Shown: positions 32,067 to 64,000 of the stretch, piece by piece | Layout: each line of letters begins with the position of its first letter | How positions within the stretch are numbered: position 1 is the stretch's first letter | DNA from: Coriobacteriia bacterium | Lineage (GTDB): Bacteria > Actinomycetota > Coriobacteriia > Anaerosomatales > SLCP01 | NCBI GenBank assembly: GCA_019429145.1 | Contig: JAHYJI010000002.1 | Span: forward strand, 19,336 to 83,335 | Length of the DNA stretch: 64,000 bases | Direction of reading: 5' to 3' | Notes under the pieces: generated by a model | Told to the model about the DNA's origin: nothing | Seen by the model: only the letters and a program-made list of their open reading frames with translations | Databases searched by the model: none | Made by a program: the position numbers and the translations under genes

Positions 32067-32082
32067 TCTCTGCCGGCCCGGT

Positions 32083-32111
32083 TTGACACCACCCCCCGTG
32101 GCCAGGACAAT
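32083..32111 (+). promoter_or_regulatory. candidate sigma-70-type promoter for selC
   Basis: TTGACA (32083-32088), a 17-nt spacer, GACAAT (32106-32111), then 7 nt to the first tRNA-Sec nucleotide at 32119. Confidence 0.45.
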
Positions 32112-32118
32112 CCTCCGC

Positions 32119-38258: not shown

Positions 38259-38419
38259 GGGCGCCTTCGCAGCATGTGGAGCACGTTCGCACCCACGCTC
38301 TCAGGTTGCCGGTGTACCGGCGTCCCCGTAAGATGTGACCTGCAACGCCCGGCCTTGGAGCCACACCCCCGGCAAGCCCCGGGCGGGCGGACTCATCCTG
38401 TCGGGCGCCAAGGAGACCG

Positions 38420-48751: not shown

Positions 48752-48849
48752 ACCGCATGCGGCTGACTTCTGCACCGCCGGTGGCGCTGCGGTTGTTCAG
48801 TCGGGCGCTTTCGTTATGGTTCTCGGCAGGCCGCCATCTGCGCGGCGAC

Positions 48850-48955
48850 GTAGCTCCGAGTCCGGATTTCCTACGGCCCAGCCGAGCGGGCCACGGATCC
48901 CGGACCGACAGGGTGGGGACGGGAAACCTCCTCGCCTCCCGGTGGAAAGGAGACC
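48850..48955 (+). ncRNA. candidate Moco/Wco riboswitch (Moco RNA motif) in the tupA leader
   Basis: The 208-nt gap between mop and tupA contains gCUCCGAGUCC...(nested stems GUCCGG/CCGGAC and GGCCC/GGGCC)...CCUCCUCGCCUCCCGGUGGAAAGGAGA. The GGAG RBS lies inside the closing helix, 9 nt before the ATG. This matches my memory of the conserved CUCCGAGCC and GCCUCC...GGAAAGG blocks of RF01055. Confidence 0.6.
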
Positions 48956-48959
48956 CAAC

Positions 48960-49841
48960 ATGCTCGAACATCTTGTGTCGTCCGCGGTGTGGAAGCGGAC
49001 ACTGCTCCTGGCTCTCGCGGTAGTGATGGCGGTGTCGCTCGCTGCTTGCGGAGCAGCCGAAGAACCCGAGGAGATCGAGGAGCCGGTAGTCGAGGAGCCC
49101 GTCGAGGTCACGAGTGTCATCCTCGCCTCGACCACCTCGACGGAGGACTCCGGACTTTTCGGCGTTCTCGTACCTGCGTTCCAGGATGACTACCCGCAGT
49201 ACCGCATCGATGTGGTCGCGGTGGGCACGGGTCAGGCTCTCGAGATCGGTCGCAACAAGGACGCAGACGTACTCCTCGTGCATGCAAAGGCAGATGAGGA
49301 GCAGCTCGTGGCCGACGGCTACGGTATCGAACGCCGTGACGTCATGTACAACGACTTCGTTATCGTCGGGCCCGAGGCTGATCCTGCCGGCATCGCAGGC
49401 GGCGATGACGCGGCTGCGGCTCTGACTGCGATCTCCGAGGGGGGTCACACGTTCGTGTCCCGGGGCGACGATTCGGGGACTCACAAGAAGGAGCTCAGTC
49501 TGTGGAGCGCTGCGGGTATCGAGCCTGCTGGCGACTGGTATCTGTCAATCGGGCAGGGCATGGGCGACACGCTCAACATGGCCTCTGAGAGCGAGGCGTA
49601 CACCCTCGCTGACCGGGGCACCTATCTCGCCATGAAGGACCGGATCGATCTCGTGGTCGTTGTCGAAGGCGACGAAGCGCTCTTCAACCCGTATGGCGTC
49701 ATCGTCGTGACCGATGCGAACAACCTCGACGGCGCTCAGGCGTTCGCGGACTGGATCGTCTCGCCGGCGGGGCAGGATATCATTCGGGAGTTCGGCGTGG
49801 ACACCTACGGCGAACCATTGTTCGTCCCGAACGCAGACTAG
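48960..49841 (+). CDS. tupA: tungstate ABC transporter substrate-binding lipoprotein
   Basis: Lipobox SLAACG. TupA signature ASTTSTEDSGLFGVLVPAF, GTGQALEIGRNKDADVLLVHA and SRGDDSGTHKKE. Confidence 0.88.
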   Translation: MLEHLVSSAVWKRTLLLALAVVMAVSLAACGAAEEPEEIEEPVVEEPVEVTSVILASTTSTEDSGLFGVLVPAFQDDYPQYRIDVVAVGTGQALEIGRNKDADVLLVHAKADEEQLVADGYGIERRDVMYNDFVIVGPEADPAGIAGGDDAAAALTAISEGGHTFVSRGDDSGTHKKELSLWSAAGIEPAGDWYLSIGQGMGDTLNMASESEAYTLADRGTYLAMKDRIDLVVVVEGDEALFNPYGVIVVTDANNLDGAQAFADWIVSPAGQDIIREFGVDTYGEPLFVPNAD

Positions 49842-49853
49842 GCACTCCGAACC

Positions 49854-50558
49854 ATGGTATTCATCGAAGCGGTCGTCACAGCGGTGGCCTTGCTCCTGCA
49901 GGGTTCCGCGGAACTGTGGAATGTCATCGCGACCACATTCGAGGTTGCCATCACCTCCACGGTCGCCGGAGTCGTGCTCGGCGCCCCCATGGGATTCCTC
50001 ATGGGGGCGACCCGGTTCCGGGGCCGCAGGCTCGCGGTTGCTCTGATCAACACCGCCATGGCCATCCCGCCGGTGGTGATCGGTCTTGTCGTCATGATGA
50101 CGCTCTCACGTCAGGGTCCCTTGGGCTTCATGGGCCTTCTGTACTCCAAGGACGCCATGTCGATTGCCCAGACACTGATCTCCACGCCCATCATCGCCGG
50201 TCTCATCGCTGCGGCCGTGGCTTCCGTTCCGTACAAGCTGCGCCTGCAGGCCCGTTCTCTCGGCGCATCCAGGCTCCAGGAGGCCCTGCTCGCGCTGAGG
50301 GAGGCACGCCTGGGGGTGATCGCTGCGGTCGCGGCAGGTTTCGGCGCAGTCGTTCGAGGTGTCGGTGCAGTCATGATGGTCGGCGGCAACATCGAAGGAC
50401 AGACCAGAGTGCTCACGACCGCGATCGTCCAGGAGTCCCGAAAGGGTGAGTTCGGCCTCGCCCTCGCACTCGGCCTGATTCTCATGACGATCACCTTCGC
50501 GATGAACGGCTTCCTTACCTGGTATCAGCACTCGAACGAACGTTTCGACAGGAGCTGA
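49854..50558 (+). CDS. tupB: tungstate ABC transporter permease
   Basis: 234 aa MetI-like permease with an EAA-type loop (SLGASRLQEALLALREARLG). It lies between tupA and tupC. Confidence 0.85.
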   Translation: MVFIEAVVTAVALLLQGSAELWNVIATTFEVAITSTVAGVVLGAPMGFLMGATRFRGRRLAVALINTAMAIPPVVIGLVVMMTLSRQGPLGFMGLLYSKDAMSIAQTLISTPIIAGLIAAAVASVPYKLRLQARSLGASRLQEALLALREARLGVIAAVAAGFGAVVRGVGAVMMVGGNIEGQTRVLTTAIVQESRKGEFGLALALGLILMTITFAMNGFLTWYQHSNERFDRS

Positions 50559-50563
50559 CCGGA

Positions 50564-51664
50564 GTGATGAACGACACTCAGGCAGGCATGGCTCTGCGGT
50601 GCACGGGGATCCGCAAGTCCTACGACAAGCGCACCGTTGTTGATGTCGCCGAGTTGGACATCCCCGCAGGCGAGACCCTGGCCGTGCTCGGTCCGTCGGG
50701 ATCGGGCAAGTCGACGCTTCTTTCGATCCTCGGGCTGCTCGAGCCACCTGACGCAGGTGAGGTGTACCTGGACGGCAACAGGGTGACGCATCGCGACAAG
50801 ACAGCCCGCATGCACATGGCTGCCGCGTTCCAGAGCCCCTACCTTTTCAAGGGCACGGTCGCCGACAACGTGGCCTACGGTCTCAAGCTGCGCAGGATGC
50901 TCTCGGTCGACCGGAGAAGCGCCGTCGCCGACTCGCTCGAGCGAGTAGGTCTGGGTGGCTGGGAGAACCGATCGGCCCTCACGCTCTCGGGCGGCGAGGC
51001 GCAGCGCGTCGCTCTCGCTCGCGCCCTCGTACTCCGGCCGCGCGTTCTCTTGCTCGACGAACCCCTTTCATCCCTCGACCCCCTCATCAAGGGCCAACTC
51101 GCCCAGGACTTCGCCCGTATCATCAGAGAGCACTCGATGACGACGCTCTATGTCACGCACGACCAGAACGAGGCGATGGCGATAGCCGACCGCATGGTGA
51201 TCTTGCGGGACGGGGTCCCTGTCGCGTCCGGAACGGTAGACGAGGTCACCGGGTTGCCTCCGGACGCCTGGACCGCGAACTTCCTCGGAGCCGAGTCCCC
51301 GATGCAGGGTTCGGTGGTCTCGTCGGCAGACGGACTCATCGGTATCGACACAGGAGGATGTGTCGTCTACGCAGGAGGCTCGGAGGAGATCGGGTCTCGC
51401 CTGATCGTCGGTGTGCGTCCGGAGGATGTACTTCTCTTCGAGGGCGATGCTGATATCCCGATCACGACCGCACGCAACCGGTTCCTCGGCACCGTGGTCG
51501 ACGTCGAGCTATGGGGCGTCATGTACCACATGGTCATCGACATCTGCGGAAGCCGCTTGGCCTCGCGAGTCTCGCGCGCATCAGTCCGAGACATGGGTCT
51601 GGAGACGGGGTCAAAGGTCCGGGTCGTCTTCAAGGCCTCGGCTGTCCGGTACAAGCGCATCTAG
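50564..51664 (+). CDS. tupC: tungstate ABC transporter ATP-binding protein with C-terminal TOBE domain
   Basis: GPSGSGKSTLL, LSGGEAQRVALARAL, LLLDEPLSSLD. C-terminal TOBE: NRFLGTVVDVELWGVMYHMVIDI...KVRVVFKASAV. Confidence 0.88.
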   Translation: MMNDTQAGMALRCTGIRKSYDKRTVVDVAELDIPAGETLAVLGPSGSGKSTLLSILGLLEPPDAGEVYLDGNRVTHRDKTARMHMAAAFQSPYLFKGTVADNVAYGLKLRRMLSVDRRSAVADSLERVGLGGWENRSALTLSGGEAQRVALARALVLRPRVLLLDEPLSSLDPLIKGQLAQDFARIIREHSMTTLYVTHDQNEAMAIADRMVILRDGVPVASGTVDEVTGLPPDAWTANFLGAESPMQGSVVSSADGLIGIDTGGCVVYAGGSEEIGSRLIVGVRPEDVLLFEGDADIPITTARNRFLGTVVDVELWGVMYHMVIDICGSRLASRVSRASVRDMGLETGSKVRVVFKASAVRYKRI

Positions 51665-51691: not shown

Positions 51692-51707
51692 TGTAACAGA
51701 CGTTACA
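51692..51707. promoter_or_regulatory. palindrome TGTAAC-N4-GTTACA upstream of the cofactor operon (site A)
   Basis: caTGTAACagacGTTACAatg. Perfect 6+6 inverted repeat. It overlaps a TACAAT -10-like hexamer and lies 49 nt upstream of the mobA-fdhD start. Confidence 0.5.
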
Positions 51708-51755: not shown

Positions 51756-53177
51756 GTGGCTGAAGACAGGATTCCCTGTACCGCGGCGGTACTTGCCGGC
51801 GGACGCTCGATGCGGATGGGTGTCGACAAGACGCTGCTCGAGGTCGATGGCGTCCCGCTTGTTGCGCGCGTCGTCGAGTCTGTCACCCGAGTGTGCGCTC
51901 ACACGTTTGTCGTGACCAACCGGCCCGAGAGCCTCGATGGTATCGATCTTGCCGACGAGGTCACCGTGCTGACCGATGAGGTTCCGTACCAGGGGCCGCT
52001 CGGCGGACTGGTCACTGCGCTCAAGGAGGCACCGGACGAGTGGGTGCTGGCGGTGGCCGCCGACATGCCGTACCTCTCCGCGGCGGTTGTCCAAGCGCTG
52101 TGGGACGCGCGAGGCGGCGCGGATGCCGTTATGCCCGTGACCCCGGAGGGTCCCGAGCCGCTGCTCGCGCTCTACTCGCGGGCGTGCCTTCCTGCCGCCC
52201 GCCGCGTGTTGGCAACCGGCCGGCGACGCTTGGTGGCGATCTTCTCCGAGATCAACGCGGTCGAGGTGCCGATCGAGTCGCTGCGCTCGGTCGACCCCGA
52301 GCTGCGCAGCTTCCTCAACGTGAACACGCCCGAGGAGCTCGCCGAGGCGCGCGAGGAGACCGTGGCGCTTTCCGTCGAGCGCGATGCCACCGAGCGCGTG
52401 AGTGTCTCGGTCATCGAGGTCGGGACACGCCGTTCGCGTGGCATGCCCTCCGAACATCCCGTGACGGTCCACATGAACGATGTGGAGGTAGCCACCATCC
52501 AGGCCACACCAGAGGACCTCGAAGAGATGGCTGCGGGCTTTCTCGTCGCCGAGGGCCTTATGGTCAACCGGGACGACCTTGTCTCCATCGACGTCGATTA
52601 CAAGCGCGGACTCGTCTACGTCTCGACGCTCGAAGAGGTTCCCGACGACATGGTCTACAAGACACGCTACGTCACGAGCGGATGCGGCAAAGGGATCACC
52701 TTCTCCTCGGTGGGCCACGCGCGCGGTCTCGACCACATCGAGACGCACCTGCGCCTCGACAGTCAGGTCGTCTACGACCTCATGGGCCAGATGGCCCGGG
52801 CCGCTACGGCATACCGGGACACCGGTGGCATGCACGCGTGCGGCCTGGCACGTGACGGTGAGCTTCTCTTCGTGCGGGAGGACGTCGGGAGGCACAACGC
52901 GCTGGACAAACTGCTCGGGCGTGCCTGGCTCGATCGCGTGCCCACTCGCGACGCCATCCTGCTCTCGACCGGCCGCATCTCCTACGAGATGGCCGTCAAG
53001 GCTGCCAAGGCAGGCGTGCCGGTCGTAGTCTCCCGCACCGCTGTGACCGATCTCGCCGCAGAGATAGCCGGCGAGCTCGGCATCACGCTTGCAGGCTATG
53101 CGCGCGGCGGCAAGATAACCGTCTACACCCATCCCGAACGCATCACGAGCCACACGACCGATGAGGATGACGAATGA
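51756..53177 (+). CDS. mobA/fdhD: fusion protein: molybdenum cofactor guanylyltransferase MobA + sulfurtransferase FdhD
   Basis: N-terminal ~200 aa: AAVLAGGRSMRMGVDKTLLEVDG...YQGPLGG...AADMPYL (MobA). C-terminal ~260 aa: VTSGCGKG...GGMHACGL...EDVGRHNALDKLLG...SGRISYEMAVKAAKAGVPVVVSRTAVT (FdhD). One uninterrupted ORF. Confidence 0.85.
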   Translation: MAEDRIPCTAAVLAGGRSMRMGVDKTLLEVDGVPLVARVVESVTRVCAHTFVVTNRPESLDGIDLADEVTVLTDEVPYQGPLGGLVTALKEAPDEWVLAVAADMPYLSAAVVQALWDARGGADAVMPVTPEGPEPLLALYSRACLPAARRVLATGRRRLVAIFSEINAVEVPIESLRSVDPELRSFLNVNTPEELAEAREETVALSVERDATERVSVSVIEVGTRRSRGMPSEHPVTVHMNDVEVATIQATPEDLEEMAAGFLVAEGLMVNRDDLVSIDVDYKRGLVYVSTLEEVPDDMVYKTRYVTSGCGKGITFSSVGHARGLDHIETHLRLDSQVVYDLMGQMARAATAYRDTGGMHACGLARDGELLFVREDVGRHNALDKLLGRAWLDRVPTRDAILLSTGRISYEMAVKAAKAGVPVVVSRTAVTDLAAEIAGELGITLAGYARGGKITVYTHPERITSHTTDEDDE

Positions 53178-54421
53178 CGATATCCGTGGAACAAGCCCGC
53201 GACCTGGTCCTGGCGCGCTGCGGGGTTCTCGAGACCGAGGACGTGCCGCTGCTCGAATCGCTCGGGCGCGTGCTGGCGGCCGACGCGCGCTCCGACATCG
53301 ACGTCGCGCCCTTCGACAACTCGGCGATGGACGGCTACGCGGTGCGTGCGACCGATCTCGCGGGTGCCTCGCAAGACTCGCCGGCGACGCTCGCGGTCAT
53401 CTCCCACATCGCCGCCGGCGACTACTCCGAGATCGAGGTCGGACCCGGCCAGGCAGCGCGCATCATGACAGGCGCCCCGGTCCCTCCAGGCGCCGATGCG
53501 GTCGTGATGGTGGAGTACACCGAGGCGGGCGAGGTTTCAGGCTCGACCGGTGGCACCGTGCACGTCATGCGCGAGGTCCGCGAGGGCGAGAACATCCGCC
53601 GGCGCGCGGAGGAGGTCTCGGCGGGTGACGTCGTGCTGGAGGCAGGCGAGGTCATCGGGCCCGCGGCCGTCGGACTGCTCGCATCTACCGGACACGCCAC
53701 CGCCACGGTCTACCGCCGTCCGCGTGTGGCGGTGATCTCGACCGGCGACGAGCTCGTCGAGGTCGCCGAGAAGCCGGGCCCGGGCAAGATCCGCAACTCC
53801 AACTCCTACTCGATCGCCGCCCAGGTGATCGCTGCCGGCGCGATCCCGCTGCGCTACCCGATCCTGCGCGACGACCCCGACGCGACCCGCGAGGCGTTCA
53901 CCCGCGCGGCCGCCGAGGCCGACTTCATCGTCACGAGCGGCGGGGTAAGCGTCGGGGACTTCGACTACGTCAAGCCGGTGCTCGAGGAGCTCGGCGAGAT
54001 GGAGTTCTGCAAGGTTGCCATGCGCCCCGGTAACCCCCAGACGCTCGGCTCTATCTCGGGCGTGCCCTTCTTCGGCCTGCCGGGCAACCCGACCTCGACC
54101 TTCGTCGGCTTCGAGATCTTCGTGCGCCCGTCGTTGCGTTACATGCAGGGCCACACGAAGCTCGATCGTCCGCGCCAGGCCGCCACGCTTGCCCACGACG
54201 TCAAGAAGAAGCAGGACCGCCGCTACTTCTTGCGGGCTCGTCTCGATCGACGCGATGACGGGGCGCTCTCGGTCGCACTCTCCGGGAGCCAGTCCTCGGC
54301 CCTGCTCACCGCGGCACATCGCGGCAACTGTCTTCTCGTCCTGCCGGAAGGGGAGGGTTTCTTCTCCGAGGGCAGCACGGTGGAGGTCATCCGACTCGAC
54401 ATGGAGGAAGGGATCGCATGA
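53174..54421 (+). CDS. moeA: molybdopterin molybdotransferase
   Basis: FDNSAMDGYAV, RIMTGAPVP, STGDELV, KIRNSNS, SGGVSVGDFDY and the GNP...F pattern. 4-nt overlap with the upstream gene. Confidence 0.92.
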   Translation: MTISVEQARDLVLARCGVLETEDVPLLESLGRVLAADARSDIDVAPFDNSAMDGYAVRATDLAGASQDSPATLAVISHIAAGDYSEIEVGPGQAARIMTGAPVPPGADAVVMVEYTEAGEVSGSTGGTVHVMREVREGENIRRRAEEVSAGDVVLEAGEVIGPAAVGLLASTGHATATVYRRPRVAVISTGDELVEVAEKPGPGKIRNSNSYSIAAQVIAAGAIPLRYPILRDDPDATREAFTRAAAEADFIVTSGGVSVGDFDYVKPVLEELGEMEFCKVAMRPGNPQTLGSISGVPFFGLPGNPTSTFVGFEIFVRPSLRYMQGHTKLDRPRQAATLAHDVKKKQDRRYFLRARLDRRDDGALSVALSGSQSSALLTAAHRGNCLLVLPEGEGFFSEGSTVEVIRLDMEEGIA

Positions 54422-54633
54422 GCGACACACCCAAGGTTATCGATCCGCGCTGGCTCGATCAGGTCACGCCCGAGCTCGTCGATGCCGTCCGCGCCAAGGC
54501 GCACGATGGTAAGGTGACCTGTCCGGTGCTGCGCAAGCTCGCCGAGGACACCGGCATCCCGTACAAGGTGGCAGGTGCGGCGGCCGATTCGGTCGGCATC
54601 AAAGTCCACAACTGCGATCTCGGCTGCTTCTAG
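54418..54633 (+). CDS. small conserved-looking Cys protein of unknown function inside the cofactor operon
   Basis: 71 aa: MSDTPKVIDPRWLDQVTPELVDAVRAKAHDGKVTCPVLRKLAEDTGIPYKVAGAAADSVGIKVHNCDLGCF. Its ATGA overlaps the moeA stop. Three Cys (C35, C66, C70). Confidence 0.55.
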   Translation: MSDTPKVIDPRWLDQVTPELVDAVRAKAHDGKVTCPVLRKLAEDTGIPYKVAGAAADSVGIKVHNCDLGCF

Positions 54634-54682
54634 GGCCGATAGGATGGGCGCGGCCGGTACCGCGCCAGGAGGCTCACGACAG

Positions 54683-55207
54683 ATGACAGACTTTCGTATC
54701 CCGGTCGTGTCCGTGGTGGGCAAGGGCAAGTCGGGCCGCACGACCCTGCTCGAGGGCGTCATCACGACGCTCACCGGACGGGGCTACCGTGTGGCCACGG
54801 CCAAGCACCACTTCCACGAGACCGACATCGACACGCCCGGCAAGGACTCGTGGCGCCACTGGAACGCCGGCGCTGTGGTCACGATGGTGAGCGCTCCCGA
54901 CCGGCTCGGCGTCTTTCGCCGGGTCGAGCAGGAGCGCACGCTCGTCGAGCTCGCCGGGGAGGCGGGCGATGTCGACATCATGCTGACCGAGGGCTTCCGG
55001 CGGACCTCGCCGGTGCTTGTGGAGGTTGTGCGCGAGGAGCGCTCCACCGAGCCGATCTGCGCTCCCGAGGAGCTCTTTGCGCTCGTGACCGACGTGGAGG
55101 AGTTGCGTGGGCTGCCCGTGCCCACGTTTGCGCTTGATGATGCAGCGGGGCTCGCGACCCTCATCGAGGAACGCTTTCTCGGCGAAGCGAGGGGCGGTGA
55201 TGCGTGA
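54683..55207 (+). CDS. mobB: molybdopterin-guanine dinucleotide biosynthesis adapter protein MobB
   Basis: P-loop VVSVVGKGKSGRTTLL, then RGYRVATAKHH...DTPGKDS. RBS ccaggagg, ATG at 54683. Confidence 0.88.
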   Translation: MTDFRIPVVSVVGKGKSGRTTLLEGVITTLTGRGYRVATAKHHFHETDIDTPGKDSWRHWNAGAVVTMVSAPDRLGVFRRVEQERTLVELAGEAGDVDIMLTEGFRRTSPVLVEVVREERSTEPICAPEELFALVTDVEELRGLPVPTFALDDAAGLATLIEERFLGEARGGDA

Positions 55208-56226
55208 TGGCAACCGACTCGTACGGCCGGCGCATCGACTACCTGCGCATCAGCCTCACCGACCGGTGTAACCTGCGGTGCGTTTACTGCATGCCCGCCA
55301 AGGGCGTGCCGTGGAAGCCGCACGATGAGATCCTCACCCTTGAGGAGATCGAGCGGTTTGCGGCAGCTGCAGTGGGTGAGGGTATCTCGAAGATCCGCCT
55401 CACCGGTGGCGAGCCGCTGGTGCGCAAAGGGGTCGTCGGGCACGTCCGGCGACTCAAGGAGCTCACGGGGCTTGAGGCGATCGCGCTTACCACCAATGGC
55501 ACGCTGCTCGCGCGCTACGCGGCACCGCTGGTCGAGGCTGGCCTCACTCGCGTCAACATCTCCATCGACTCGCTCGATCCAGCCGTTTTCGAGCGCGTGA
55601 CCCGTGGCGGCAAGCTCACCGACGCGCTCGCGGGGCTCCACGCCGCGTTCGAGGCGGGTATGGGGCCGATCAAGGTGAACGCCGTTGTCGTGCGCAGTCT
55701 CGAGCAGGACCTCCTCGGCTTCGCTCGGATGACGCTCGATCGGCCCGTGCACGTGCGGTTCATCGAGTACATGCCCGTAGGTGGTGTGGGAGGGGGGGAG
55801 TGCGAGCCGGCGAGCGAGGGCTGGACGCAGGCCGACCACGTGCCCGCCGACGAGATACTCGAGCGTCTGGCTGCCGAGGGGATCGCCGCGGGCATCGGAG
55901 CACCCGAACCCGTGCAGCGTGCCGAGGCACCGGGTGGCTGGGGGCCGGCCCGCTACTACCGCTATCCGGGCGCAGAGGGCACGGTCGGCGTGATCACCCC
56001 GCTCTCTCACCACTTCTGTGGCGAGTGCAACCGTTTGCGCCTGACTGCAGACGGCCGTCTGCGCGCCTGCCTCTTCTCCGACGACGAGATCGACGTGCGC
56101 ACGGTACTGCGCGAGGGCACCGACGCCGATGTGCGCGAGGTCATCCGGATGGCGCTCGCCACCAAGCCCGAGAGCCACAGCATGCGCGTGGGAACCACGC
56201 GCGGCATGTCCCAGATAGGGGGCTGA
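55204..56226 (+). CDS. moaA: GTP 3',8-cyclase (radical SAM)
   Basis: [19 protein letters not shown] radical-SAM cluster motif, GGEPLVR, and the C-terminal second cluster [18 protein letters not shown]. Confidence 0.95.
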
Positions 56227-56231
56227 GCGGC

Positions 56232-56768
56232 ATGGCCGAACCCACGCATTCCGCCGCGGGGCGCCACGAGCGCCTCACCCACCTCGACGAGCGTGGCGAG
56301 GCCCGCATGGTCGACGTGGGCGAGAAGCCCGACACCCGTCGGCGTGCCGTCGCCTCCGCGATCATCACGATGCGTCCGGAGACGCTCGCGATGATCGTCG
56401 AGGGCAGGGCGCCCAAGGGCGACGTCTTCGCCACCGCGCGCATCGCGGGCATCATGGCCGCCAAACGAACGAGCGACCTCGTCCCCATGTGTCACCCGCT
56501 CGCGCTCACGCACGCGAGTGTCGAGCTCGAGCCCGAACCCGCCCCCGCGGACATAGTGGGCAGTGCCGCGGTGCGCATCACCGCGACGTGCGAGACCACC
56601 GGTCCCACCGGCGTGGAGATGGAGGCGCTCACGGCGGCGGCGGTGGCGGGTCTGACCCTGTACGATATGTGCAAGGCGGTCGACCGGGGCATGGTCCTCG
56701 ACGACGTCATGCTGCTCGAGAAGGATGGCGGCGCATCAGGTCGCTGGACCCGTAAGGAGGACGAATGA
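56232..56768 (+). CDS. moaC: cyclic pyranopterin monophosphate synthase
   Basis: [59 protein letters not shown]. Confidence 0.93.
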
Positions 56769-57259
56769 GCGGCGATTCCATGACACTTCCCACGCCCGGC
56801 CGGGTGGTCTCGGTGAACCTCTCCGAGAAGAAGACCGTCCGCAAGACCCCCGGTCAGAGTGGCACGCTCGTCTACGACCGCGGGTTTGAGGGCGACGCGC
56901 ACGCGGGCGACTGGCACCGCCAGGTGAGCCTGCTCGCTCAGGAGTCCATCGACTCGATGGTAGCCAAGGGGCTCGATGTCGGCGCGGGCGACTTCGCCGA
57001 GAACATAACCACCGAGGGCATCGATCTACCGGCCCTGCCCGTGGGCACGGTGCTCAAGGTCGGCGAGGACGCCGTGCTCGAGGTGAGTCAGATCGGCAAG
57101 GTGTGTCACACCAAGTGTGCCATCTACTACCAGGCCGGCGACTGCGTCATGCCCCGCGAGGGCATCTTCGTGGTCGTGCGCGAGCCCGGTGACGTCGCGG
57201 TGGGCGACACCGTCGAGGTCGTCTCGCTCGGCGACGGCACCTGCGACAGGGTTGAGTGA
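56765..57259 (+). CDS. MOSC domain-containing protein
   Basis: [17 protein letters not shown]...[17 protein letters not shown]...[11 protein letters not shown] beta-barrel MOSC pattern. 4-nt overlap with moaC. Confidence 0.85.
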
Positions 57260-57260
57260 C

Positions 57261-57740
57261 GTGGACCGTCCGGTGCGCCTCGGGATCGTGACGTGTTCGG
57301 ATACCCGCTCGGAAGCCGAGGACACGGCGGGCGCGGCGCTCAAGACGCTCATCACGGCCCGCGGCTGGCAGGTAGTCGCCTACACCATCTGCCCCGATGA
57401 GGAGTCCTGCATCGCAGAGGCGCTCATCGAGATGGCCGACTCGCTCGATGCCGACGTCATCCTGACGTGCGGCGGGACCGGATTCAGCCCGCGCGACATC
57501 ACGCCCGAGGTGACCGAGAGGGTCGCCGGTCGCCGCGCGCCCGGCATCGCCGAGCACATCCGCGCGCAGAGTCTCGCGGTCACGCCGCGTGCTGTGCTCT
57601 CGCGAGCCACCGCCGGAATCCGGGGCACCACACTCATCATCAACCTCCCCGGTAGCGAGAAGGCCGCCCGGGAGTCATTCGGTTTTGTGGCCGACCAGCT
57701 CGAACACGCCGTAGACATGATGGCCGGAGGGGGGCACTAG
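57261..57740 (+). CDS. moaB: MoaB/MogA family molybdenum cofactor biosynthesis protein
   Basis: LGIVTCSDTRS...DVILTCGGTGFSPRDITPE...PGSEKA motifs. GTG at 57261. Confidence 0.88.
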   Translation: MDRPVRLGIVTCSDTRSEAEDTAGAALKTLITARGWQVVAYTICPDEESCIAEALIEMADSLDADVILTCGGTGFSPRDITPEVTERVAGRRAPGIAEHIRAQSLAVTPRAVLSRATAGIRGTTLIINLPGSEKAARESFGFVADQLEHAVDMMAGGGH

Positions 57741-58910: not shown

Positions 58911-59155
58911 GCGGCCGCCCGTTGCGCTCCTTTGCCGTACTGGGCTTCGCGACCACCCATACCGCGCTCGCTGCGGAGCAGTTGCTCAAGGATCTCGGTG
59001 TGCCGGTGACGCCGATCCCCGCGCCCACGTCGATCGGCGGCGCACTCTGCGGCATCGCCCTGCGGCTGGATCCCGGCGATGTCGAGCGCGCCGAGACCTT
59101 GCTGGAGCGTGCGGAGCTCCCGGTCGCCGCGCGGGGCGAGATAGAGGATGTCTAG
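58907..59155 (+). CDS. DUF3343 domain protein (putative Se/S carrier-like)
   Basis: 82 aa: FAVLGFATTHTALAAEQLLKDLGVPVTPIPAPTSIGGALCGIALRL, which is the DUF3343 pattern with its conserved Cys. 4-nt overlap with the desulfurase gene. Confidence 0.7.
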   Translation: MSGRPLRSFAVLGFATTHTALAAEQLLKDLGVPVTPIPAPTSIGGALCGIALRLDPGDVERAETLLERAELPVAARGEIEDV

Positions 59156-59238: not shown

Positions 59239-59254
59239 TGTAACTCGTGTTACG
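59239..59254. promoter_or_regulatory. palindrome TGTAAC-N4-GTTACg upstream of the cytochrome operon (site B)
   Basis: gtaaTGTAACtcgtGTTACGag. Same half-sites and spacing as site A at 51692. It lies 115 nt upstream of the cytochrome b ORF start. Confidence 0.45.
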
Positions 59255-59368: not shown

Positions 59369-60235
59369 GTGACAGGGAGCAGGGGGGTGTCGGCGATAGT
59401 AAGCCTGACCCAGTTGAACATCTGGCTGGACGTCGCGTTCACCAGCCTCTACGCGGTCGTTCTGGTCGCCCTCGTCATACACTTCCTCGGCAGCATCCCC
59501 AAGGGGCGATTCCGCAAGAAGTTCATCCTCAAGAAGTGGCCGGAGCACGATCACGCTCCGGGGACCCAGCCCAAGCTCCTGCACCACACACATATGCTGA
59601 TGATGATCGTCCTCGCGATCTCGGGCCTCTACATCAGGTTCCCGTTCTTCGATGGCGGCCGCACGGCGATGCGCTACATCCACTACTTCGCCATGATCGT
59701 CGTCACGATCAACCTCATCTGGCGGCTGTGGTACGCGTTCTTCTCCAAGCAGCGCGACTGGAGGGAGTTCGCGATCACCAAGGATGACGCCAAGTCCGCT
59801 CTCGGCGTCATCCTCTACTACTCCTACATCAGCAACAGCAAGCCGCACACGTCGTCGAAGTACAACGTCATGCAGAAGTTCAGCTACCAGTTCTTCCTCG
59901 TGCTGATGCTGATGCAGGTGTATACCGGCTTCGCGTTAGTGTTCACGCCCATATTCTGGGGCTACAGTCCCCGTGACATCCTCGTGGGCTGGTGGCTCGG
60001 GGTATTCGTCGGCTCGACCGACCTTGCCGGATGGTATGCGCGCACGGCCCACTACGTGATCAACTGGCTCTTCATCATCATGACCACCGTCCACGTCTAC
60101 CTGTCCGCGACCGAGGACGTCCCGGTCACGCTCGACTTCTTCTTCGTCAAGGACCTGGAGATCAAGGGCGGCCACGGTCATGCACCGGAGCCGCACGCGG
60201 TCCCGGCCGCGGGGACGACGGCGGGTGATCAGTGA
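59369..60235 (+). CDS. membrane b-type cytochrome (Ni/Fe-hydrogenase / FdnI / PhsC-type cytochrome b family)
   Basis: 4-5 TM helices with conserved His (VIHFLG, LLHHTHMLMMIV, MRYIHYFAMIV, TAHYVINWLFIIMTTVHVY) and KYNVMQKFSY. The start may be GTG at 59387. The stop overlaps the next gene's start. Confidence 0.75.
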   Translation: MTGSRGVSAIVSLTQLNIWLDVAFTSLYAVVLVALVIHFLGSIPKGRFRKKFILKKWPEHDHAPGTQPKLLHHTHMLMMIVLAISGLYIRFPFFDGGRTAMRYIHYFAMIVVTINLIWRLWYAFFSKQRDWREFAITKDDAKSALGVILYYSYISNSKPHTSSKYNVMQKFSYQFFLVLMLMQVYTGFALVFTPIFWGYSPRDILVGWWLGVFVGSTDLAGWYARTAHYVINWLFIIMTTVHVYLSATEDVPVTLDFFFVKDLEIKGGHGHAPEPHAVPAAGTTAGDQ

Positions 60236-61119
60236 TGCGAGCCGGCACTTTGACCAAACTGGCTCTGCTGGCGCTGGCCCTCTCTGTGACGATGATCCCT
60301 GCGGCAGCTCTTGCCCAGGAGGCACCGGTGGCCACCACGAGCGCTGACGTCATCGGCTACGACGTCGACTTCACCCTGCCCACCGCCGCCAAGGCGGGAT
60401 GTCTGGTGTGTCACGGCGACGAGAACCTGATCCGTCTGCGCGAGGACGAGATCGTGAGCTTCTTCGTCGATCCCGCCGAGCTCGAAGCGGGCCCGCACGC
60501 GACGGTTCAGTGCGCCGGCTGCCACCTCGACTTCGCCTTCACCCTGCCTCACGTGCAGGAGACCGAGGATTGGCAGCGCACCGCCAAGTCCGCGTGCAAG
60601 AACTGCCACCAGGACCAGTACGTGGAGTACGGCCAGGGCGCTCACCGTATCGAGGTCGGCAACGGTGCGTCCGCCGATGCTGACGAGAAGCCGCTGTGCG
60701 GCGATTGCCACGGTGCGCACGACATGGTGGCGCTCGTGGATAGTCCCGAGGGCCAGGCGGCTATGCGGGACAACGCCTGGGAGGTCTGCGGCCGCTGTCA
60801 CGAGGACTACTGGGAGAACTACAACGACTACTACCACGGCCGCCCCTTCAAGCGCGGCGGTGCGTATGACGCGCCATCGTGCTGGGACTGCCACGGTTAC
60901 CACGACATCAGGCCGTCGAGCGACCGTCGTTCGACGGTGCACGAGAGCCGGCTTGCAGAGACGTGCACCAGCAACCCGGCCTGTCATCATGACGTGAATG
61001 TTGACTACCTGACCTACGCGGAGATGATCCACGGGCACGGTGAGCTGCTGGAGCAAAATCCCCTCTTTGACCTCCTGAGCAGGATACGGTCGGCGATCTC
61101 CGGCTTGTTCGGTGGCTAG
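60232..61119 (+). CDS. secreted multihaem c-type cytochrome, 6 CXXCH + 1 CX5CH
   Basis: Signal peptide LALLALALSVTMIPAAALAQEA. Motifs: CLVCH, CAGCH, CKNCH, CGDCH, CGRCH, CWDCH, plus CTSNPACH. Confidence 0.88.
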   Translation: MMRAGTLTKLALLALALSVTMIPAAALAQEAPVATTSADVIGYDVDFTLPTAAKAGCLVCHGDENLIRLREDEIVSFFVDPAELEAGPHATVQCAGCHLDFAFTLPHVQETEDWQRTAKSACKNCHQDQYVEYGQGAHRIEVGNGASADADEKPLCGDCHGAHDMVALVDSPEGQAAMRDNAWEVCGRCHEDYWENYNDYYHGRPFKRGGAYDAPSCWDCHGYHDIRPSSDRRSTVHESRLAETCTSNPACHHDVNVDYLTYAEMIHGHGELLEQNPLFDLLSRIRSAISGLFGG

Positions 61120-61173
61120 GCGAGACCTCCTCAGAGGACGCGCGCCACGCGAGACTCGGAAGGGCAGGCGGCG

Positions 61174-62421
61174 ATGATCCATCTCACGAGAGGTCGGGCG
61201 GTCCATCTCCTGTTGGCGACCGTGTGTGCGGCAGTGCTGCTGCTCGGAGTTGTGACGCTCGCAGTCGCACAGGATGACGGAGTCCTGATCATCGACACCG
61301 GTGCACCCGTCTACGCCAGTACCTGCAAGGTGTGTCACGGGGTGATAGCCGAGGGGCGCAACCCGCAGGTCGAGTTCAGTCACGCTACCCACATGGTCTA
61401 CGCATGCAGCAGCTGCCACGGCGTGTTCCCCCACACGCCGGCCGGAACCCTGACCCCCACGATGAAGAGCTGCTGGAACTGCCACGGGCTGCGCCACGGC
61501 CCGATGGGGATCATCGCAGGCTACGAGTGCGAGCAGTGCCACGGCAACTACGCCGGGCGGATGCGTCCCGACTTCCACGGTCGTGACTGGGCCGAGGAGC
61601 CTCACGTCCAGCCGGGCATCGACGAGCTGCGAACCACGTGCATGATGTGCCACACGAAGGCCGACTGCGACTCCTGTCACCAGGAGGTCGGAGTGACCTG
61701 GCGCACGGCCGTGCCGTTCACCTACGACGCCGAGAACGGGTGCCTTGCCTGCCACGGCTACGAGAACCTCACGAAGGTCTCCGAGGACGGGCTGAAGTCC
61801 TACTACGTCACGGGGATCGATCAGAGTGCCCACCGCGACATCACCTGTACGCAGTGTCACCCCGACTTCGACTACACCGATGACGCGCCCGCGACACCCC
61901 TCTGGCGCATCAATGCCGGCCTTGCATGCCAGGAGTGCCACGACCACCAGGATGTGACCGAGGTCTACGCCGAGTCACTTCACGGCCGGCTCATCGCCGA
62001 TGGTGAGTACTCCTCGGCGACGTGCGCGTCCTGTCACGGTGGTCACGACATCGCTCGCCTCGACACCGAGGCGGCTCGACGTGCACTCCACCTGAGCGGC
62101 GAGCAGATGTGTGCCGAGTGTCATCGCGAGGCGTTCGACAGCTACGATGACTATTATCACGGCGCCCCGTACAAGCGCGGCGCCGTAGACGCACCGTCTT
62201 GTTGGGACTGCCACGGCGCCCACGAGGTGCTTGCGGTAGCCGACCCCGCATCGCTCATGTATTCGACCAATGCGGTCGAGACGTGCGGCCAGGACGGCTG
62301 CCACTACGGCTCGAGCGCGTCGTTCATCGAGCACACGTCCTACCTCATCCACGGCCGGAGCGAGTCCGTCTCCGCCAATCCGATCATCCGCTGGTGGCGT
62401 TCGCTGAGGGGTCAGGGGTAG
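61174..62421 (+). CDS. membrane-anchored/secreted multihaem c-type cytochrome, 12 CXXCH + 1 CX4CH
   Basis: N-terminal hydrophobic anchor LLLATVCAAVLLLGVVTLAVA. Motifs: CKVCH, CSSCH, CWNCH, CEQCH, CMMCH, CDSCH, CLACH, CTQCH, CQECH, CASCH, CAECH, CWDCH, plus CGQDGCH. Confidence 0.88.
   Translation: MIHLTRGRAVHLLLATVCAAVLLLGVVTLAVAQDDGVLIIDTGAPVYASTCKVCHGVIAEGRNPQVEFSHATHMVYACSSCHGVFPHTPAGTLTPTMKSCWNCHGLRHGPMGIIAGYECEQCHGNYAGRMRPDFHGRDWAEEPHVQPGIDELRTTCMMCHTKADCDSCHQEVGVTWRTAVPFTYDAENGCLACHGYENLTKVSEDGLKSYYVTGIDQSAHRDITCTQCHPDFDYTDDAPATPLWRINAGLACQECHDHQDVTEVYAESLHGRLIADGEYSSATCASCHGGHDIARLDTEAARRALHLSGEQMCAECHREAFDSYDDYYHGAPYKRGAVDAPSCWDCHGAHEVLAVADPASLMYSTNAVETCGQDGCHYGSSASFIEHTSYLIHGRSESVSANPIIRWWRSLRGQG
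61324..61680 (+). repeat. hexahaem module copy 1 (119 aa, protein-level repeat)
   Basis: Residues 51-169 of the 415-aa cytochrome: CKVCH...FSHATH..CSSCH..FPH...PTMKSCWNCHGLRHG...CEQCH...WAEEPH...CMMCH-x4-CDSCH. Confidence 0.6.
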
Positions 62422-62430
62422 GCCGGCCAT

Positions 62431-64000
62431 ATGAACTCTGCCCGGAAAACGATTCTGTTCGGCGCCGCGGTCGTGCTCCTCGCGACCGCGTTGGCCATGG
62501 CCGGACCGCTGTCCGGCATCGGCCAGGAGGCCTCGCCCGAGATCGACCTCACGGGTCCGGTCAGGGCATCCTCCTGCCTGCAGTGTCACGAGTCGCTCGG
62601 AGAGTCCCGCTCGCCGGGCCTGACGTTCGACCACGAGACCCACCTGCCTCCGGCGTGCAACGCGTGCCACATCAGGCCGGCTCACGAGGCCGGCATCATC
62701 TACTCGCCGCCGATGTCGACGTGCTTCGCGTGCCACGGCCTCGTCCACGGCGTCCAGGGACTCGTCGCGACAGCGGCGTGTGACTACTGCCACACGCCCG
62801 AGTTCGAGCTCAGGCCGGCATGGCACGTCGAGACGTGGGCTGAGGAGCCTCACGCCGGCGCTTCACTCCGTGGCGGCACGAATGGATGCATCCTCTGCCA
62901 CGATCCGCGCCAGGACTGCGACGCCTGCCATGCCGAACTTGCCATCGACACGCCGCGCGTGCCGCCGATCTACGTAAGCTCCATACCCACACCTGAGCGG
63001 CGCCCGCCGGTGACCGTCGACCCGACCGCTGCGGTGACGATGGGCCAGTGCTTCTTCTGCCACCCGGTGATCGATCGCGAGTGGCCGGACCTCATCTTCA
63101 CCCACGACACGCATCTGATGCGTGACTACCGGTGCGAGACCTGCCACGAGTCCTTCCCCCACGGCGTGGGGGAAGTCGAGATTCCCACGATGATCTCCTG
63201 CTACCGCTGTCACGGTCTGCTCCACGCGGCTCAGGGTGAGGTCGCCGCCGGCGAAGACTGCCTGCTCTGCCACCCACCCGCCTTCGAGCTGATACCGGCC
63301 GACCACACCCCGGCGTTCATCGCCGAGGAGCACGCGGAACCGGCACGCGACGACATGCCGCAGTGCACGATGTGTCACGCGTCGACGCTGTGCTCCGAGT
63401 GCCACCGTGGAGAGCGCGAACTCGACGACGGCACGCTGAGCCTGCAGGTCATACCCGATGACCACCAGCAGGCCGAGTGGATCGTCGACCACGGAGGGAT
63501 CTACCTCGGCGGCATGGGCGCATGCTCCGTCTGCCACACGTCCGAGTCCTGCCAGCGGTGCCACTTCACGCCGATGCCGCACTCCACCACCTGGCTGGCG
63601 GACCATACGGCAAACGGTTACCCGCGCGATGACTGCAAGGTCTGCCATCAGGACCGCGCGTCGTGCCAGGAGTGCCACCACGGTGACGTGCGCGATCTCG
63701 AGCTTGTCGCAGAGAACTGCGTGGACTGTCACCCGGTGATGGCAACGGAACCCGCCACGGATATCAAGGAGATGGGCTTCGCCGAGCACGCGGTGCACTT
63801 CGGGGTCGAGGAGTCGATCGGGCGTCCGTACGTGTGCGACGACTGCCACGTCGGCTTCACAGTGGCGCGCGTCCGCGACTTCGGAACGCACAACTTCGCG
63901 ACTCAGGCACACGACTTGCGTATCTGTTATGACTGCCACGGTGCGCTGGACTCCAGCAACATCGAGATCGCACCGTGGCCCGGCTCCCAGCTCTGTCGCC
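62431..64000 (+). CDS. large multihaem c-type cytochrome, 3' end outside window (at least 19 CXXCH in 523 aa)
   Basis: This ORF is not in the supplied track because it has no stop in the window. My own translation from ATG 62431 gives MNSARKTILFGAAVVLLATALAMAGP... with no stop to nt 64000. Motifs: CLQCH, CNACH, CFACH, CDYCH, CILCH, CDACH, CFFCH, CETCH, CYRCH, CLLCH, CTMCH, CSECH, CSVCH, CQRCH, CKVCH, CQECH, CVDCH, CDDCH, CYDCH. Confidence 0.85.
   Translation, partial: MNSARKTILFGAAVVLLATALAMAGPLSGIGQEASPEIDLTGPVRASSCLQCHESLGESRSPGLTFDHETHLPPACNACHIRPAHEAGIIYSPPMSTCFACHGLVHGVQGLVATAACDYCHTPEFELRPAWHVETWAEEPHAGASLRGGTNGCILCHDPRQDCDACHAELAIDTPRVPPIYVSSIPTPERRPPVTVDPTAAVTMGQCFFCHPVIDREWPDLIFTHDTHLMRDYRCETCHESFPHGVGEVEIPTMISCYRCHGLLHAAQGEVAAGEDCLLCHPPAFELIPADHTPAFIAEEHAEPARDDMPQCTMCHASTLCSECHRGERELDDGTLSLQVIPDDHQQAEWIVDHGGIYLGGMGACSVCHTSESCQRCHFTPMPHSTTWLADHTANGYPRDDCKVCHQDRASCQECHHGDVRDLELVAENCVDCHPVMATEPATDIKEMGFAEHAVHFGVEESIGRPYVCDDCHVGFTVARVRDFGTHNFATQAHDLRICYDCHGALDSSNIEIAPWPGSQLCR
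62575..62931 (+). repeat. hexahaem module copy 2 (119 aa)
   Basis: Residues 49-167 of the partial cytochrome: CLQCH...FDHETH..CNACH...PPMSTCFACHGLVHG...CDYCH...WAEEPH...CILCH-x4-CDACH. Cys offsets are 1/28/50/69/105/115, against 1/28/50/69/106/115 in copy 1. Confidence 0.6.
63049..63405 (+). repeat. hexahaem module copy 3 (119 aa)
   Basis: Residues 207-325: CFFCH...FTHDTH..CETCH..FPH...PTMISCYRCHGLLHA...CLLCH...IAEEH...CTMCH-x4-CSECH. Cys offsets are 1/29/51/71/106/115. Confidence 0.6.

Follow-up and report, generated by a model that had tools for sequence, protein, structure and literature searches.

In Desulfovibrio, electrons pass from hydrogenase or formate dehydrogenase (FDH) to cytochrome c3 and on to Qrc, Hmc or Tmc, an arrangement in which a large multihaem cytochrome and a membrane cytochrome b make the link to the membrane; the network comprises a tungsten- and selenocysteine-dependent (W/Sec) FdhAB (with cytochrome c3 in FdhABC3), the [NiFeSe] hydrogenase Hys, type I c3, and Hmc, Tmc, Qrc, Nhc and Ohc. 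CbcL of Geobacter sulfurreducens fuses a HydC/FdnI-like dihaem cytochrome b to a multihaem cytochrome c and acts as an inner-membrane quinol oxidoreductase for low-potential acceptors. In the monoderms Thermincola potens (OcwA and the TherJR cytochromes) and Carboxydothermus ferrireducens (OmhA and SmhA–C), chains of multihaem cytochromes that carry electrons from the membrane through the wall have been proposed. Here we describe a gene cluster for a cytochrome b (cyt b), four multihaem cytochromes (MHC1–4) and an exchangeable enzyme, the front half of which lies at the end of a 64,000-nt stretch of the genome of a Coriobacteriia bacterium (GCA_019429145.1, contig JAHYJI010000002.1, positions 19,336 to 83,335; hereafter the window). 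The component types are familiar ones (Sec/W-FDH, [NiFe]-hydrogenase, HyaC-type cytochrome b and c3/c7 modules), and the cluster departs from each of the families compared with it (Desulfovibrio, CbcL and Gram-positive extracellular electron transfer (EET)) in at least one defining feature.

A cultured organism also bears on the cluster. Parvivirga hydrogeniphila Es71-Z0120, of the same order (Anaerosomatales), uses formate or H2 as its only donors and Fe(III) as its only acceptor, and has a Gram-positive wall (PMC9686372). Khomyakova et al. (2022) described in it a ‘peculiar’ cluster, MCL4079376–90, of MHCs and a molybdopterin oxidoreductase, which they linked to Fe(III) reduction; they assigned the FDH to CO2 fixation, stated that FeS and membrane-anchor subunits were absent, and reported weak homologies to the EET cytochromes of Thermincola and Carboxydothermus (PMC9686372).

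On balance, we favour the view that the cluster encodes a donor-fed haem network that would link the oxidation of formate or H2 outside the cytoplasm, a membrane carrier pool reached through cyt b, and extracellular Fe(III). The proposal builds on what was observed of gene content, motif conservation, synteny, an exchangeable enzyme slot, a shared operator, a riboswitch and export signals. Four co-directional genes at 59369–64000, found by listing and translating open reading frames (ORFs), make up the part of the cluster at the window edge; a putative operator precedes them:

59239..59254, forward strand: palindromic operator TGTAACTCGTGTTACG, upstream of cyt b (alignment of upstream regions)
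59387..60235, forward strand: cyt b, dihaem, HyaC/FdnI type (PF01292, AlphaFold2 (AF2), Foldseek, start-codon conservation)
60232..61119, forward strand: MHC1, exported heptahaem cytochrome c with six CXXCH motifs and one CX5CH
61174..62421, forward strand: MHC2, exported 13-haem cytochrome c with 12 CXXCH motifs and one CX4CH
62431..64000, forward strand: MHC3, exported 20-haem cytochrome c, cut by the window edge

The GTG start of MHC1 overlaps the cyt b stop by 4 nt, as it does in the related locus L077, and gaps of 54 nt and 9 nt separate MHC1 from MHC2 and MHC2 from MHC3. An earlier, sequence-only reading of the window had described the same four genes, overlap and gaps, with a cyt b start at 59369 that is more likely to lie at 59387 (below). 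Its motif counts of 6+1 and 12+1 for MHC1 and MHC2 were borne out, and its ‘at least 19’ for MHC3 becomes 20: the window holds 523 amino acids with 19 CXXCH motifs, and the identical database protein P0121, of 531 amino acids, carries the twentieth, CRRCH. The window misses 8 codons, so MHC3 is not a much longer protein truncated by the window edge. Together, MHC1–3 contain 38 CXXCH and two variant motifs, giving 40 haem sites. In each protein the only hydrophobic segment is a single one at the N terminus, in agreement with the signal or anchor sequences noted earlier.

We take these haem motifs to be no chance occurrence, because CXXCH is found in no other high-GC3 ORF of the 64-kb window and because motifs and histidines are conserved in orthologues. 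In alignments of 34–37 sequences, reaching down to approximately 27–45% identity, seven of seven MHC1 motifs are 100% conserved (34 orthologues), all 20 CXXCH of MHC3 and 19–20 additional histidines are invariant (37 orthologues), and conservation across the motifs of MHC1, MHC2 and MHC4 is 88–100%. A lack of conservation of CXXCH in orthologues, which the earlier reading had named as grounds for abandoning it, is therefore not what we see. The number of extra conserved histidines fits bis-His ligation. In MHC1, the seventh motif (residues 245–252; window approximately 60964–60987) ranges among orthologues from CXXCH through CX4CH and CX5CH to CX17CH with both cysteines and the histidine invariant, and it may need a dedicated haem-lyase helper. 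Over its C-terminal half, MHC2 shares 35% identity with MHC1, and its N-terminal half resembles MHC3 modules; MHC2 is a chimera of an MHC3-type hexahaem and an MHC1-type heptahaem module, which fits an adaptor role.

Searches place these cytochromes in a fold class and not, on our reading of the scores, in a functional family: MHC1–3 score 32–60 bits against Cytochrome_C7 and 33–54 bits against Cytochrom_c3_2 (cut-offs of approximately 25; PF14522, PF14537, PF02085 superfamily). MHC3 also matches PF22113, the MtrC/MtrF domain II/IV (52 bits; cut-off, 30). By sequence and profile searches the MHCs matched no solved Mtr, OmcA or other EET cytochrome, and the cluster contains no porin gene. We found no sequence relative of MHC3 in the PDB; MHC2 matched c3 alone there (E > 0.1), and phmmer and profile searches of the MHCs gave at best weak matches to c7, ActA or HAO-like modules. 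The architecture matches no characterized complex, in line with the earlier reading, which could not place it in one. The MHC3 family is compact, with 120 representatives at E < 1e-30 in a library clustered at 50% identity, about a dozen of them full length (read from the table); the taxa named on the matches are Coriobacteriia, Anaerosomatales, Thermoleophilia and other Actinomycetota.

The genes beyond the window edge were read in L001 (JARGFT010000002.1), a contig of an Anaerosomatales metagenome-assembled genome (MAG) that aligns collinearly with the final 12.8 kb of the window, with 92% of nucleotides identical. There, MHC3 is followed by a TPR protein, an NHL propeller protein, a gap of approximately 500 nt, fdhA, fdhB and MHC4, with fdhA and fdhB lying 2.9 kb downstream:

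L001 13926–15458: NHL six-bladed propeller protein (orthologues in 38 loci)
L001 20337–21530: MHC4, hexahaem cytochrome of 397 amino acids with a Paired_CXXCH_1 domain

The molybdopterin enzyme is predicted to be FdhAB, a selenocysteine FDH exported by the twin-arginine translocation (Tat) pathway. We reach this assignment because of the in-frame TGA motif and hairpin, the best solved relatives, the aligned active-site residues and the molybdenum cofactor (Moco) riboswitch in the gap upstream. The fdhA frame of 1170 codons has one in-frame TGA, within the motif HQARI-U-HSSTVAGL; after it comes a stable hairpin, its loop GGUCU, that resembles a selenocysteine insertion sequence (SECIS) element. 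The frame encodes TAT_signal, Molybdop_Fe4S4, Molybdopterin and Molydop_binding domains. The best solved relatives of FdhA are the W/Sec-FdhA of D. vulgaris (1e-98), the W-FDH of D. gigas and Escherichia coli FdnG, and its Sec, His and the catalytic Arg of NALRG align with the D. vulgaris enzyme. FdhA is approximately 150 amino acids longer than FdnG and misses the NCBIfam equivalog cut-off (its two halves sum to approximately 454 bits against 814). FdhB is a four-cluster ferredoxin subunit with a C-terminal transmembrane (TM) helix and a weak match to HmcB (36.5 bits; cut-off, 420). An ‘unseen Mo/W enzyme’, linked to the W-transport, Moco, FdhD and Se genes upstream, had been anticipated from the window, and the Sec-FdhAB downstream in L001 and other loci answers to it. 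An nrfHA, hao, ttr or psr system, which the earlier reading had named as the outcome that would overturn it, can be rejected: the best matches and active-site motifs of the Mo/W enzyme are those of an FDH, and the relevant cytochrome models fall far below their cut-offs (MHC1 against NrfH, 23.9 bits, cut-off 134.2; MHC1 against NapC/NirT, 12.6 bits, cut-off 310.6; MHC2 against Cytochrom_NNT, 14 bits, cut-off 24.1).

The fdhB and MHC4 genes overlap by 4 nt. MHC4 has a low haem density (six haems in 397 amino acids), its family has more than 790 members in Actinomycetota MAGs, and its sole PDB sequence match is a weak one (E = 0.023) to 9yuq_N, a ‘putative multiheme cytochrome c’ in a 16-chain deposit. 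The TPR protein has an N-terminal TM helix and weakly matches the CcmH/CycH TPR model, under the cut-off; it could alternatively be an NrfG-like specificity factor for haem lyase. The NHL protein has an N-terminal TM helix, a second one after the propeller (residues 361–383) and a cytoplasmic tail of approximately 125 amino acids without a Pfam match, an architecture with which it could signal or tether across the membrane. A further candidate in the gap between the NHL gene and fdhA of L001, orf111, was rejected as a gene; it overlaps the Moco riboswitch.

To follow the cluster more widely, we retrieved 65 metagenome loci through an alignment of MHC3 orthologues and established gene order by tblastn with all reference proteins. 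The order is the same throughout: cyt b, MHC1, MHC2, MHC3, TPR, NHL, enzyme slot, MHC4. Presence was counted over loci with enough flanking sequence:

cyt b: present in 23/28 loci
MHC1: present in 25/28 loci
MHC2: present in 22/28 loci
TPR protein: present in 51/52 loci
NHL protein: present in 38/38 loci
MHC4: present in 19/19 loci
Enzyme slot (29 loci): FdhAB in 13 loci, the small and large subunits of a [NiFe]-hydrogenase in 14 loci, no enzyme but two copies of MHC4 in 2 loci

The hydrogenase sits between NHL and MHC4 in L025, L027, L028, L029, L034, L036, L038, L039, L041, L043, L045, L053, L060 and L061. Its subunits are recognized by Pfam, and the best curated models are the Desulfovibrio [NiFeSe] Hys subunits; the small subunit carries a Tat signal but lacks a TM helix at its C terminus, and the large subunit ends in DPCIACAVH, with Cys and not Sec. 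The two clusters without an enzyme, L015 and L057, retain cyt b and the MHCs. Two FDH clusters, L011 and L068, are without cyt b, and MHC2 is missing from L011, L015, L057 and L068. In L029 (1–21533), an FDH module (NHL, riboswitch, fdhA, fdhB, MHC4) is followed after 2.6 kb by a hydrogenase module (MHC3, TPR, NHL, hydS, hydL, MHC4), which means that one genome can hold both enzyme variants. What had been read as a four-gene unit is thus, as judged from gene order and promoters, a cluster of at least ten genes in three co-regulated transcription units with an exchangeable enzyme module; the four window genes would be the front, membrane-proximal half of a cluster conserved in Anaerosomatales and other subsurface, monoderm Actinomycetota.

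A conserved acidic protein of approximately 465–480 amino acids follows MHC4 in hydrogenase-type loci (L039 19602–21041, L028 19707–21101 and eight others); it lacks TM segments and matched nothing in Pfam or NCBIfam. The FDH-type locus L011 has a 479-amino-acid gene after MHC4.

The co-regulation is suggested by a palindrome with the extended consensus TTGTAAC-N4-GTTACAA. Two copies occur in the window, against 0.19 expected by chance: the one already listed, which lies 115–133 nt upstream of cyt b and overlaps a conserved promoter-like element (TTGCCT-17 nt-TGTAAT), and one upstream of the cofactor genes:

51692..51707, forward strand: palindromic operator TGTAACAGACGTTACA, 49 nt upstream of mobA-fdhD (position also occupied in L001)

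The element upstream of cyt b is kept in 7/8 aligned sequences (the window and seven loci), and L001 carries copies at 522–537, 8065–8080 and 15561–15576. Scanning 924 kb of window and loci with at most one mismatch to TGTAAC-N4-GTTACA gave 49 sites, in 34 loci in all, every one of them at a cluster promoter: upstream of fdhD (3), cyt b (13), fdhA (13) and hydS (14), and in the gap from NHL to the enzyme at a contig end (6). None was found upstream of the four orphan cyt b genes examined. The palindrome is probably the operator of a regulator that controls the whole cluster, and its sharing implies that the cyt b–MHC operon, the cofactor genes and the enzyme operon form one regulon. We take its spacing and flanks to resemble those of Rex boxes, from which the half-site differs. 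A simple scan of the interval between the carrier gene and cyt b found no consensus sigma-70 promoter or terminator; the promoter-like element surfaced by alignment. A second layer distinguishes the enzyme variants: a Moco riboswitch (RF01055) follows the operator upstream of fdhA in 8/8 FDH loci tested (L001, at 15627–15758, L011, L014, L023, L029, L035, L054 and L068) and is absent from the hydrogenase-type loci tested.

The genes upstream in the window match the needs of such an enzyme:

48842–48968, forward strand: Moco/tungsten cofactor (Wco) riboswitch, RF01055 (53.6 bits; gathering score, 36)
48842..51664, forward strand: the riboswitch and a tungstate-type ABC transporter (TupA-like, TupB-like, WtpC-like ATPase)
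51756..57740, forward strand: cofactor block of MobA–FdhD fusion, MoeA, 71-amino-acid ORF, MobB, MoaA, MoaC, MOSC and MoaB/Mog (Pfam)
57741–58910, forward strand: cysteine desulfurase or selenocysteine-lyase-like gene (Aminotran_5, 4e-79; TIGR01977, 5e-112; SclA, 3e-90)
58907–59155, forward strand: 82-amino-acid Se/S-carrier gene (PF11823 Se_S_carrier on the L077 orthologue)
26710–27693, forward strand: selD (Pfam; NCBIfam SelD, 366 bits, cut-off 125)
28144–30153, forward strand: selA (Pfam)
approximately 29916–32066, forward strand: selB (Pfam)
32119–32215, forward strand: tRNA-Sec, anticodon TCA, directly after selB (ARAGORN and Rfam)

The desulfurase and carrier genes immediately precede cyt b and keep their synteny with the cluster, and the gene order of the cofactor block is the same in L011 and L077 (Pfam annotation). 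The block is predicted to supply and sulfurate the Mo/W-bis(pyranopterin guanine dinucleotide) cofactor (Mo/W-bisPGD) of the downstream FDH. The best NCBIfam matches of the transporter are TupA (4.5e-59), TupB (7.5e-46) and WtpC (1.5e-74), all under the equivalog cut-offs. The genes at 26710–32215 appear to be a complete set for selenocysteine insertion; together with the tungstate-type transporter and the Moco genes, they would supply what a Sec- and Mo/W-dependent FDH needs. Elsewhere in the window, a polyprenyl synthetase gene (38339–39427) was the sole possible quinone side-chain gene noticed, and no men genes were seen in the 64 kb.

We turn to cyt b, the proposed membrane component. Its frame, as first read, spans 59369–60235. 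The start is more likely the GTG at 59387, 18 nt later, which gives a protein of 282 amino acids: this GTG has a conserved GGGAG Shine–Dalgarno sequence 7 nt upstream, the GTG at 59369 is not conserved, and the database gene calls P0001 and P0002 are of 282 amino acids. Assignment to the FdnI/HydC type, already made from the window, stands: the protein scores 65.4 bits against PF01292 (gathering threshold, 30.1; E = 7e-18) and 71.9 bits against the NCBIfam equivalog TIGR02125 (Ni/Fe-hydrogenase b-type cytochrome subunit), under the cut-off of 121.5, and in a profile search the cytochrome b of E. coli hydrogenase-1, HyaC (4gd3), is the sole solved relative (E = 2.4e-5). The AF2 model (predicted local distance difference test (pLDDT) 83.5) has five long helices, and its top Foldseek matches are 6g94_A and 4gd3_A (probability 1.0; TM-score of 0.57–0.62 on target).

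Cyt b has no Cys. Seven histidines are invariant among 41 aligned sequences (H38, H60, H72, H75, H105, H228 and H242). They include the canonical haem-ligand pattern of one His in each of the first two core helices and two in the last (H72/H75, H105, H228 and H242), which aligns with the histidines of HyaC; the last-helix pair has H-x13-H spacing, identical in HyaC. Five TM helices are predicted, the canonical four and an additional N-terminal one that bears H38 and is followed by a K/R-rich loop with H60.

The cyt b family has more than 500 members in Coriobacteriia MAGs. Many are orphan genes, for example adjoining uvrB, and the close paralogues (61–81% identity) are orphans in unrelated contexts of related genomes. 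GCA_014859265.1 holds both an orphan and a cluster copy, and with these paralogues it rules out cyt b as an MHC-specific subunit. The window cyt b is 77–80% identical to orphans (L009 and L010) and 60–62% identical to the cluster copies of its closest relatives (L077 and L012), in which MHC3 shares 78% identity with the window protein; a neighbour-joining tree without bootstrap values places the window cyt b among orphans. It is a mosaic, with cluster-like termini and promoter and an orphan-like central part, which suggests gene conversion by an orphan, uvrB-adjacent paralogue. Such conversion implies that orphan and cluster cyt b would be functionally interchangeable. An orphan cyt b paralogue in an actinobacterial metagenome contig is followed, 1.4 kb further downstream, by a heliorhodopsin gene (L007 and L008, 12277–13035).

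Measured against the systems described at the outset, the cluster resembles Desulfovibrio in the relatives of its FdhA and hydrogenase and in having a c-type cytochrome gene directly after the enzyme genes; the linkage to the membrane by a large multihaem cytochrome and a membrane cytochrome b follows a similar logic. It differs in that the host is a monoderm without an enclosed periplasm, in the additional TPR and NHL proteins, and in its 6-, 7-, 13- and 20-haem proteins, which are not c3, HmcA or NhcA; among the cluster genes there are no NrfD-like, HmcB–F-like FeS/CCG-type, TmcB-like or QrcB–D partner subunits. CbcL likewise pairs a cytochrome b of the HydC/FdnI type with a multihaem c protein, and the translationally coupled cyt b and MHC1 could be a split version of that design. 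Here, however, they are separate polypeptides, MHC1 has seven haems and probably a cleavable signal peptide, and the likeness noted is one of design. With E. coli Fdn-N and HyaABC the cluster shares a Sec-containing FDH alpha subunit exported by Tat, a beta subunit that has four clusters and a C-terminal TM helix, and a PF01292 dihaem cytochrome b, but its cyt b lies six genes upstream of the enzyme genes and has the extra N-terminal TM helix, and four MHCs are added. In contrast to the Gram-positive EET chains, the donor enzyme is inside the cluster and the membrane part is a cytochrome b, not a NapC/NirT- or NrfD-type protein; MHC2, MHC3 and MHC4 had no significant match to solved EET cytochromes, OcwA included.

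The cluster MCL4079376–90 of P. hydrogeniphila is probably equivalent to the one described here. Its FDH is split into MCL4079382–3, as an in-frame UGA would give; if cyt b is MCL4079376, the numbering fits cyt b, MHC1–3, TPR, NHL, FdhA-N and FdhA-C exactly; and the donors of the organism, formate and H2, match the two enzyme variants found here. Given this cluster, the assignment of that FDH to the cytoplasm and the claimed lack of FeS and anchor subunits look questionable. The Parvivirga paper gives its cluster a single paragraph and omits cyt b, the TPR and NHL genes, the exchange of FDH and hydrogenase, the operator and the riboswitch. In the literature searched we found no description elsewhere of such a cluster, nor any of the exchangeable slot, the TPR/NHL pair, the shared operator, the riboswitch gate or the cyt b mosaic, and nothing relevant on ‘osc’ (OmcS-companion) genes or on actinobacterial clusters of FDH or hydrogenase with MHCs.

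We propose that the three transcription units would work together as follows. The first would provide W uptake, Moco synthesis, FdhD, the desulfurase and the Se/S carrier; the second, cyt b, MHC1, MHC2, MHC3, the TPR protein and the NHL propeller; and the third, under the Moco riboswitch, the selenocysteine-containing FdhA, FdhB and MHC4. Tat-exported FdhAB, held at the outer face of the membrane by the C-terminal helix of FdhB, would oxidize formate, and in sister clusters a Tat-exported [NiFe]-hydrogenase would oxidize H2 in its place. Electrons would pass from the enzyme to hexahaem MHC4, a step that we propose because the genes are coupled and because c-type cytochromes accept electrons from relatives of both enzyme types. 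From MHC4 they would enter a bis-His network of MHC3 (20 haems), MHC2 (13) and MHC1 (7), probably organized by the membrane-anchored TPR and NHL proteins. Two outlets are envisaged: through dihaem cyt b to a lipophilic carrier pool in the membrane or across the membrane, and outward, across the cell wall, to Fe(III) or comparable acceptors outside the cell. The order of transfer, the direction of flow through cyt b, the coupling to quinone and Fe(III) as the final acceptor are what we infer. Our reasons for including EET are the repeated presence of NHL and TPR genes in the EET cytochrome clusters of other bacteria, the 46 c-type haems, the Gram-positive wall, and the physiology and cluster of P. 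hydrogeniphila.

Several points weigh against this proposal. The cluster is known here from genes alone, the FDH genes were read in the 92%-identical relative L001 and not in the window, and the equivalence with the Parvivirga cluster is drawn from gene numbering and the published description. The AF2 model of MHC3 is poor (pLDDT 61) and gave no structural match in Foldseek, and domain searches found no cell-wall-anchoring or S-layer domain in the MHCs. Cyt b has close orphan paralogues and is missing from 5/28 clusters. Oxidizing formate and reducing Fe(III) on the same, outer side of the membrane would by itself conserve no energy, and with FDH and cyt b on one haem network that has an external outlet, electrons could bypass an energy-conserving loop. 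Respiratory quinones were undetected in both cultured Anaerosomatales strains, the genomes of which encode complex I and hydrogenases linked to cytochrome b (PMC9686372). The partner of cyt b is uncertain for this reason, and the ‘menaquinol-coupled’ label of the sequence-only reading, which followed from the cyt b family alone, is not established.

One alternative, which we regard as possible but rather unlikely, is that the cluster is a donor:quinone oxidoreductase comparable to the Desulfovibrio route through cytochrome c3 to Qrc, Hmc or Tmc. FDH or hydrogenase would feed MHC4 and MHC3–1, and cyt b would pass the electrons to menaquinone or another carrier on the cytoplasmic side, as half of an electrogenic redox loop, with any terminal reductase drawing on the pool. 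This would account better than the donor-fed network for energy conservation from external formate or H2, because oxidizing formate and reducing Fe(III) both outside moves no charge across the membrane. The closest solved relative of cyt b is HyaC, and in E. coli it is the HyaC/FdnI family that carries out quinone reduction in Hyd-1 and Fdn-N; a HyaC-like topology would agree with the His pattern of cyt b and with the K/R-rich loop that follows its extra helix. Both enzyme variants are also closest to periplasmic Desulfovibrio enzymes that donate to cytochromes c, as the [NiFeSe] Hys enzymes do. However, 40–46 haems with TPR and NHL scaffolds far exceed what a bridge from enzyme to membrane cytochrome needs, the enzyme-less L015 and L057 retain cyt b and MHCs, the FDH clusters L011 and L068 are without cyt b, quinones were undetected in cultured relatives, and Fe(III) is the sole acceptor of the only cultured organism for which such a cluster has been reported. 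The donor-fed network and this alternative are compatible if the network acts as a hub.

A more radical variant, which we think improbable, would dispense with quinones altogether: respiration in a monoderm actinomycete in which an exchangeable FDH/hydrogenase cassette feeds a network of approximately 46 haems that spans the wall to Fe(III), with the five-helix cyt b and its extra invariant His as a transmembrane electron gate and not as a quinone site.

It is doubtful that cyt b is instead the FdnI/HyaC-type membrane subunit of the FDH or hydrogenase, with the MHC, TPR and NHL proteins as a separate, co-located and co-regulated EET system. In E. coli, FdnH docks on FdnI, and FdhB has a C-terminal TM helix like that of FdnH; cyt b belongs to the HyaC/FdnI family, and the orphan paralogues show that it can work without adjacent MHC genes. 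Yet cyt b lies five genes and one promoter from fdhAB while overlapping MHC1 by 4 nt, it is retained in enzyme-less clusters and absent from some FDH clusters, the hydrogenase small subunit has no C-terminal anchor for docking, and it is MHC4, not cyt b, that is coupled to fdhB or hydL in 19/19 loci.

Reverse flow, in which electrons from reduced minerals, Fe(0), cathodes or partner cells would drive the W-FDH as a CO2 reductase or the hydrogenase in H2 evolution, and/or pass inward through cyt b for autotrophy, seems very unlikely, although the nearest FdhA relatives are the D. vulgaris-type W/Sec FDHs, which are reversible CO2 reductases, and bis-His haem chains have no inherent direction. 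Khomyakova et al. placed the Parvivirga FDH at the first step of the reductive glycine pathway (PMC9686372), but the FDH here is Tat-exported and would make formate outside the cell, the cultured relative grows by oxidizing formate or H2 with Fe(III), and we found no sign of extracellular electron donors.

The cluster offers a concrete and testable parts list: a swappable donor enzyme with its own hexahaem partner, a relay of 40 haems, an invariant pair of scaffold or assembly proteins, a cytochrome b and a common operator. Anaerosomatales (OPB41) are widespread in the deep subsurface; to our knowledge only two strains have been cultured, and we know of very few organisms, none of them in the Actinomycetota, in which Gram-positive-type electron transfer to minerals is understood. 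For the bioelectrocatalytic conversion of CO2 and H2, too, the modular connection of W/Sec-FDH and hydrogenase to haem wires is of interest. The cluster appears to be present in P. hydrogeniphila, an obligate Fe(III) reducer available in culture, which makes the predictions directly testable; because the FDH described here is exported by Tat, placing the P. hydrogeniphila enzyme in cytoplasmic CO2 fixation would then need correction. If the quinone-independent design were true, it would represent an uncharacterized form of energy coupling between external donors and external acceptors.

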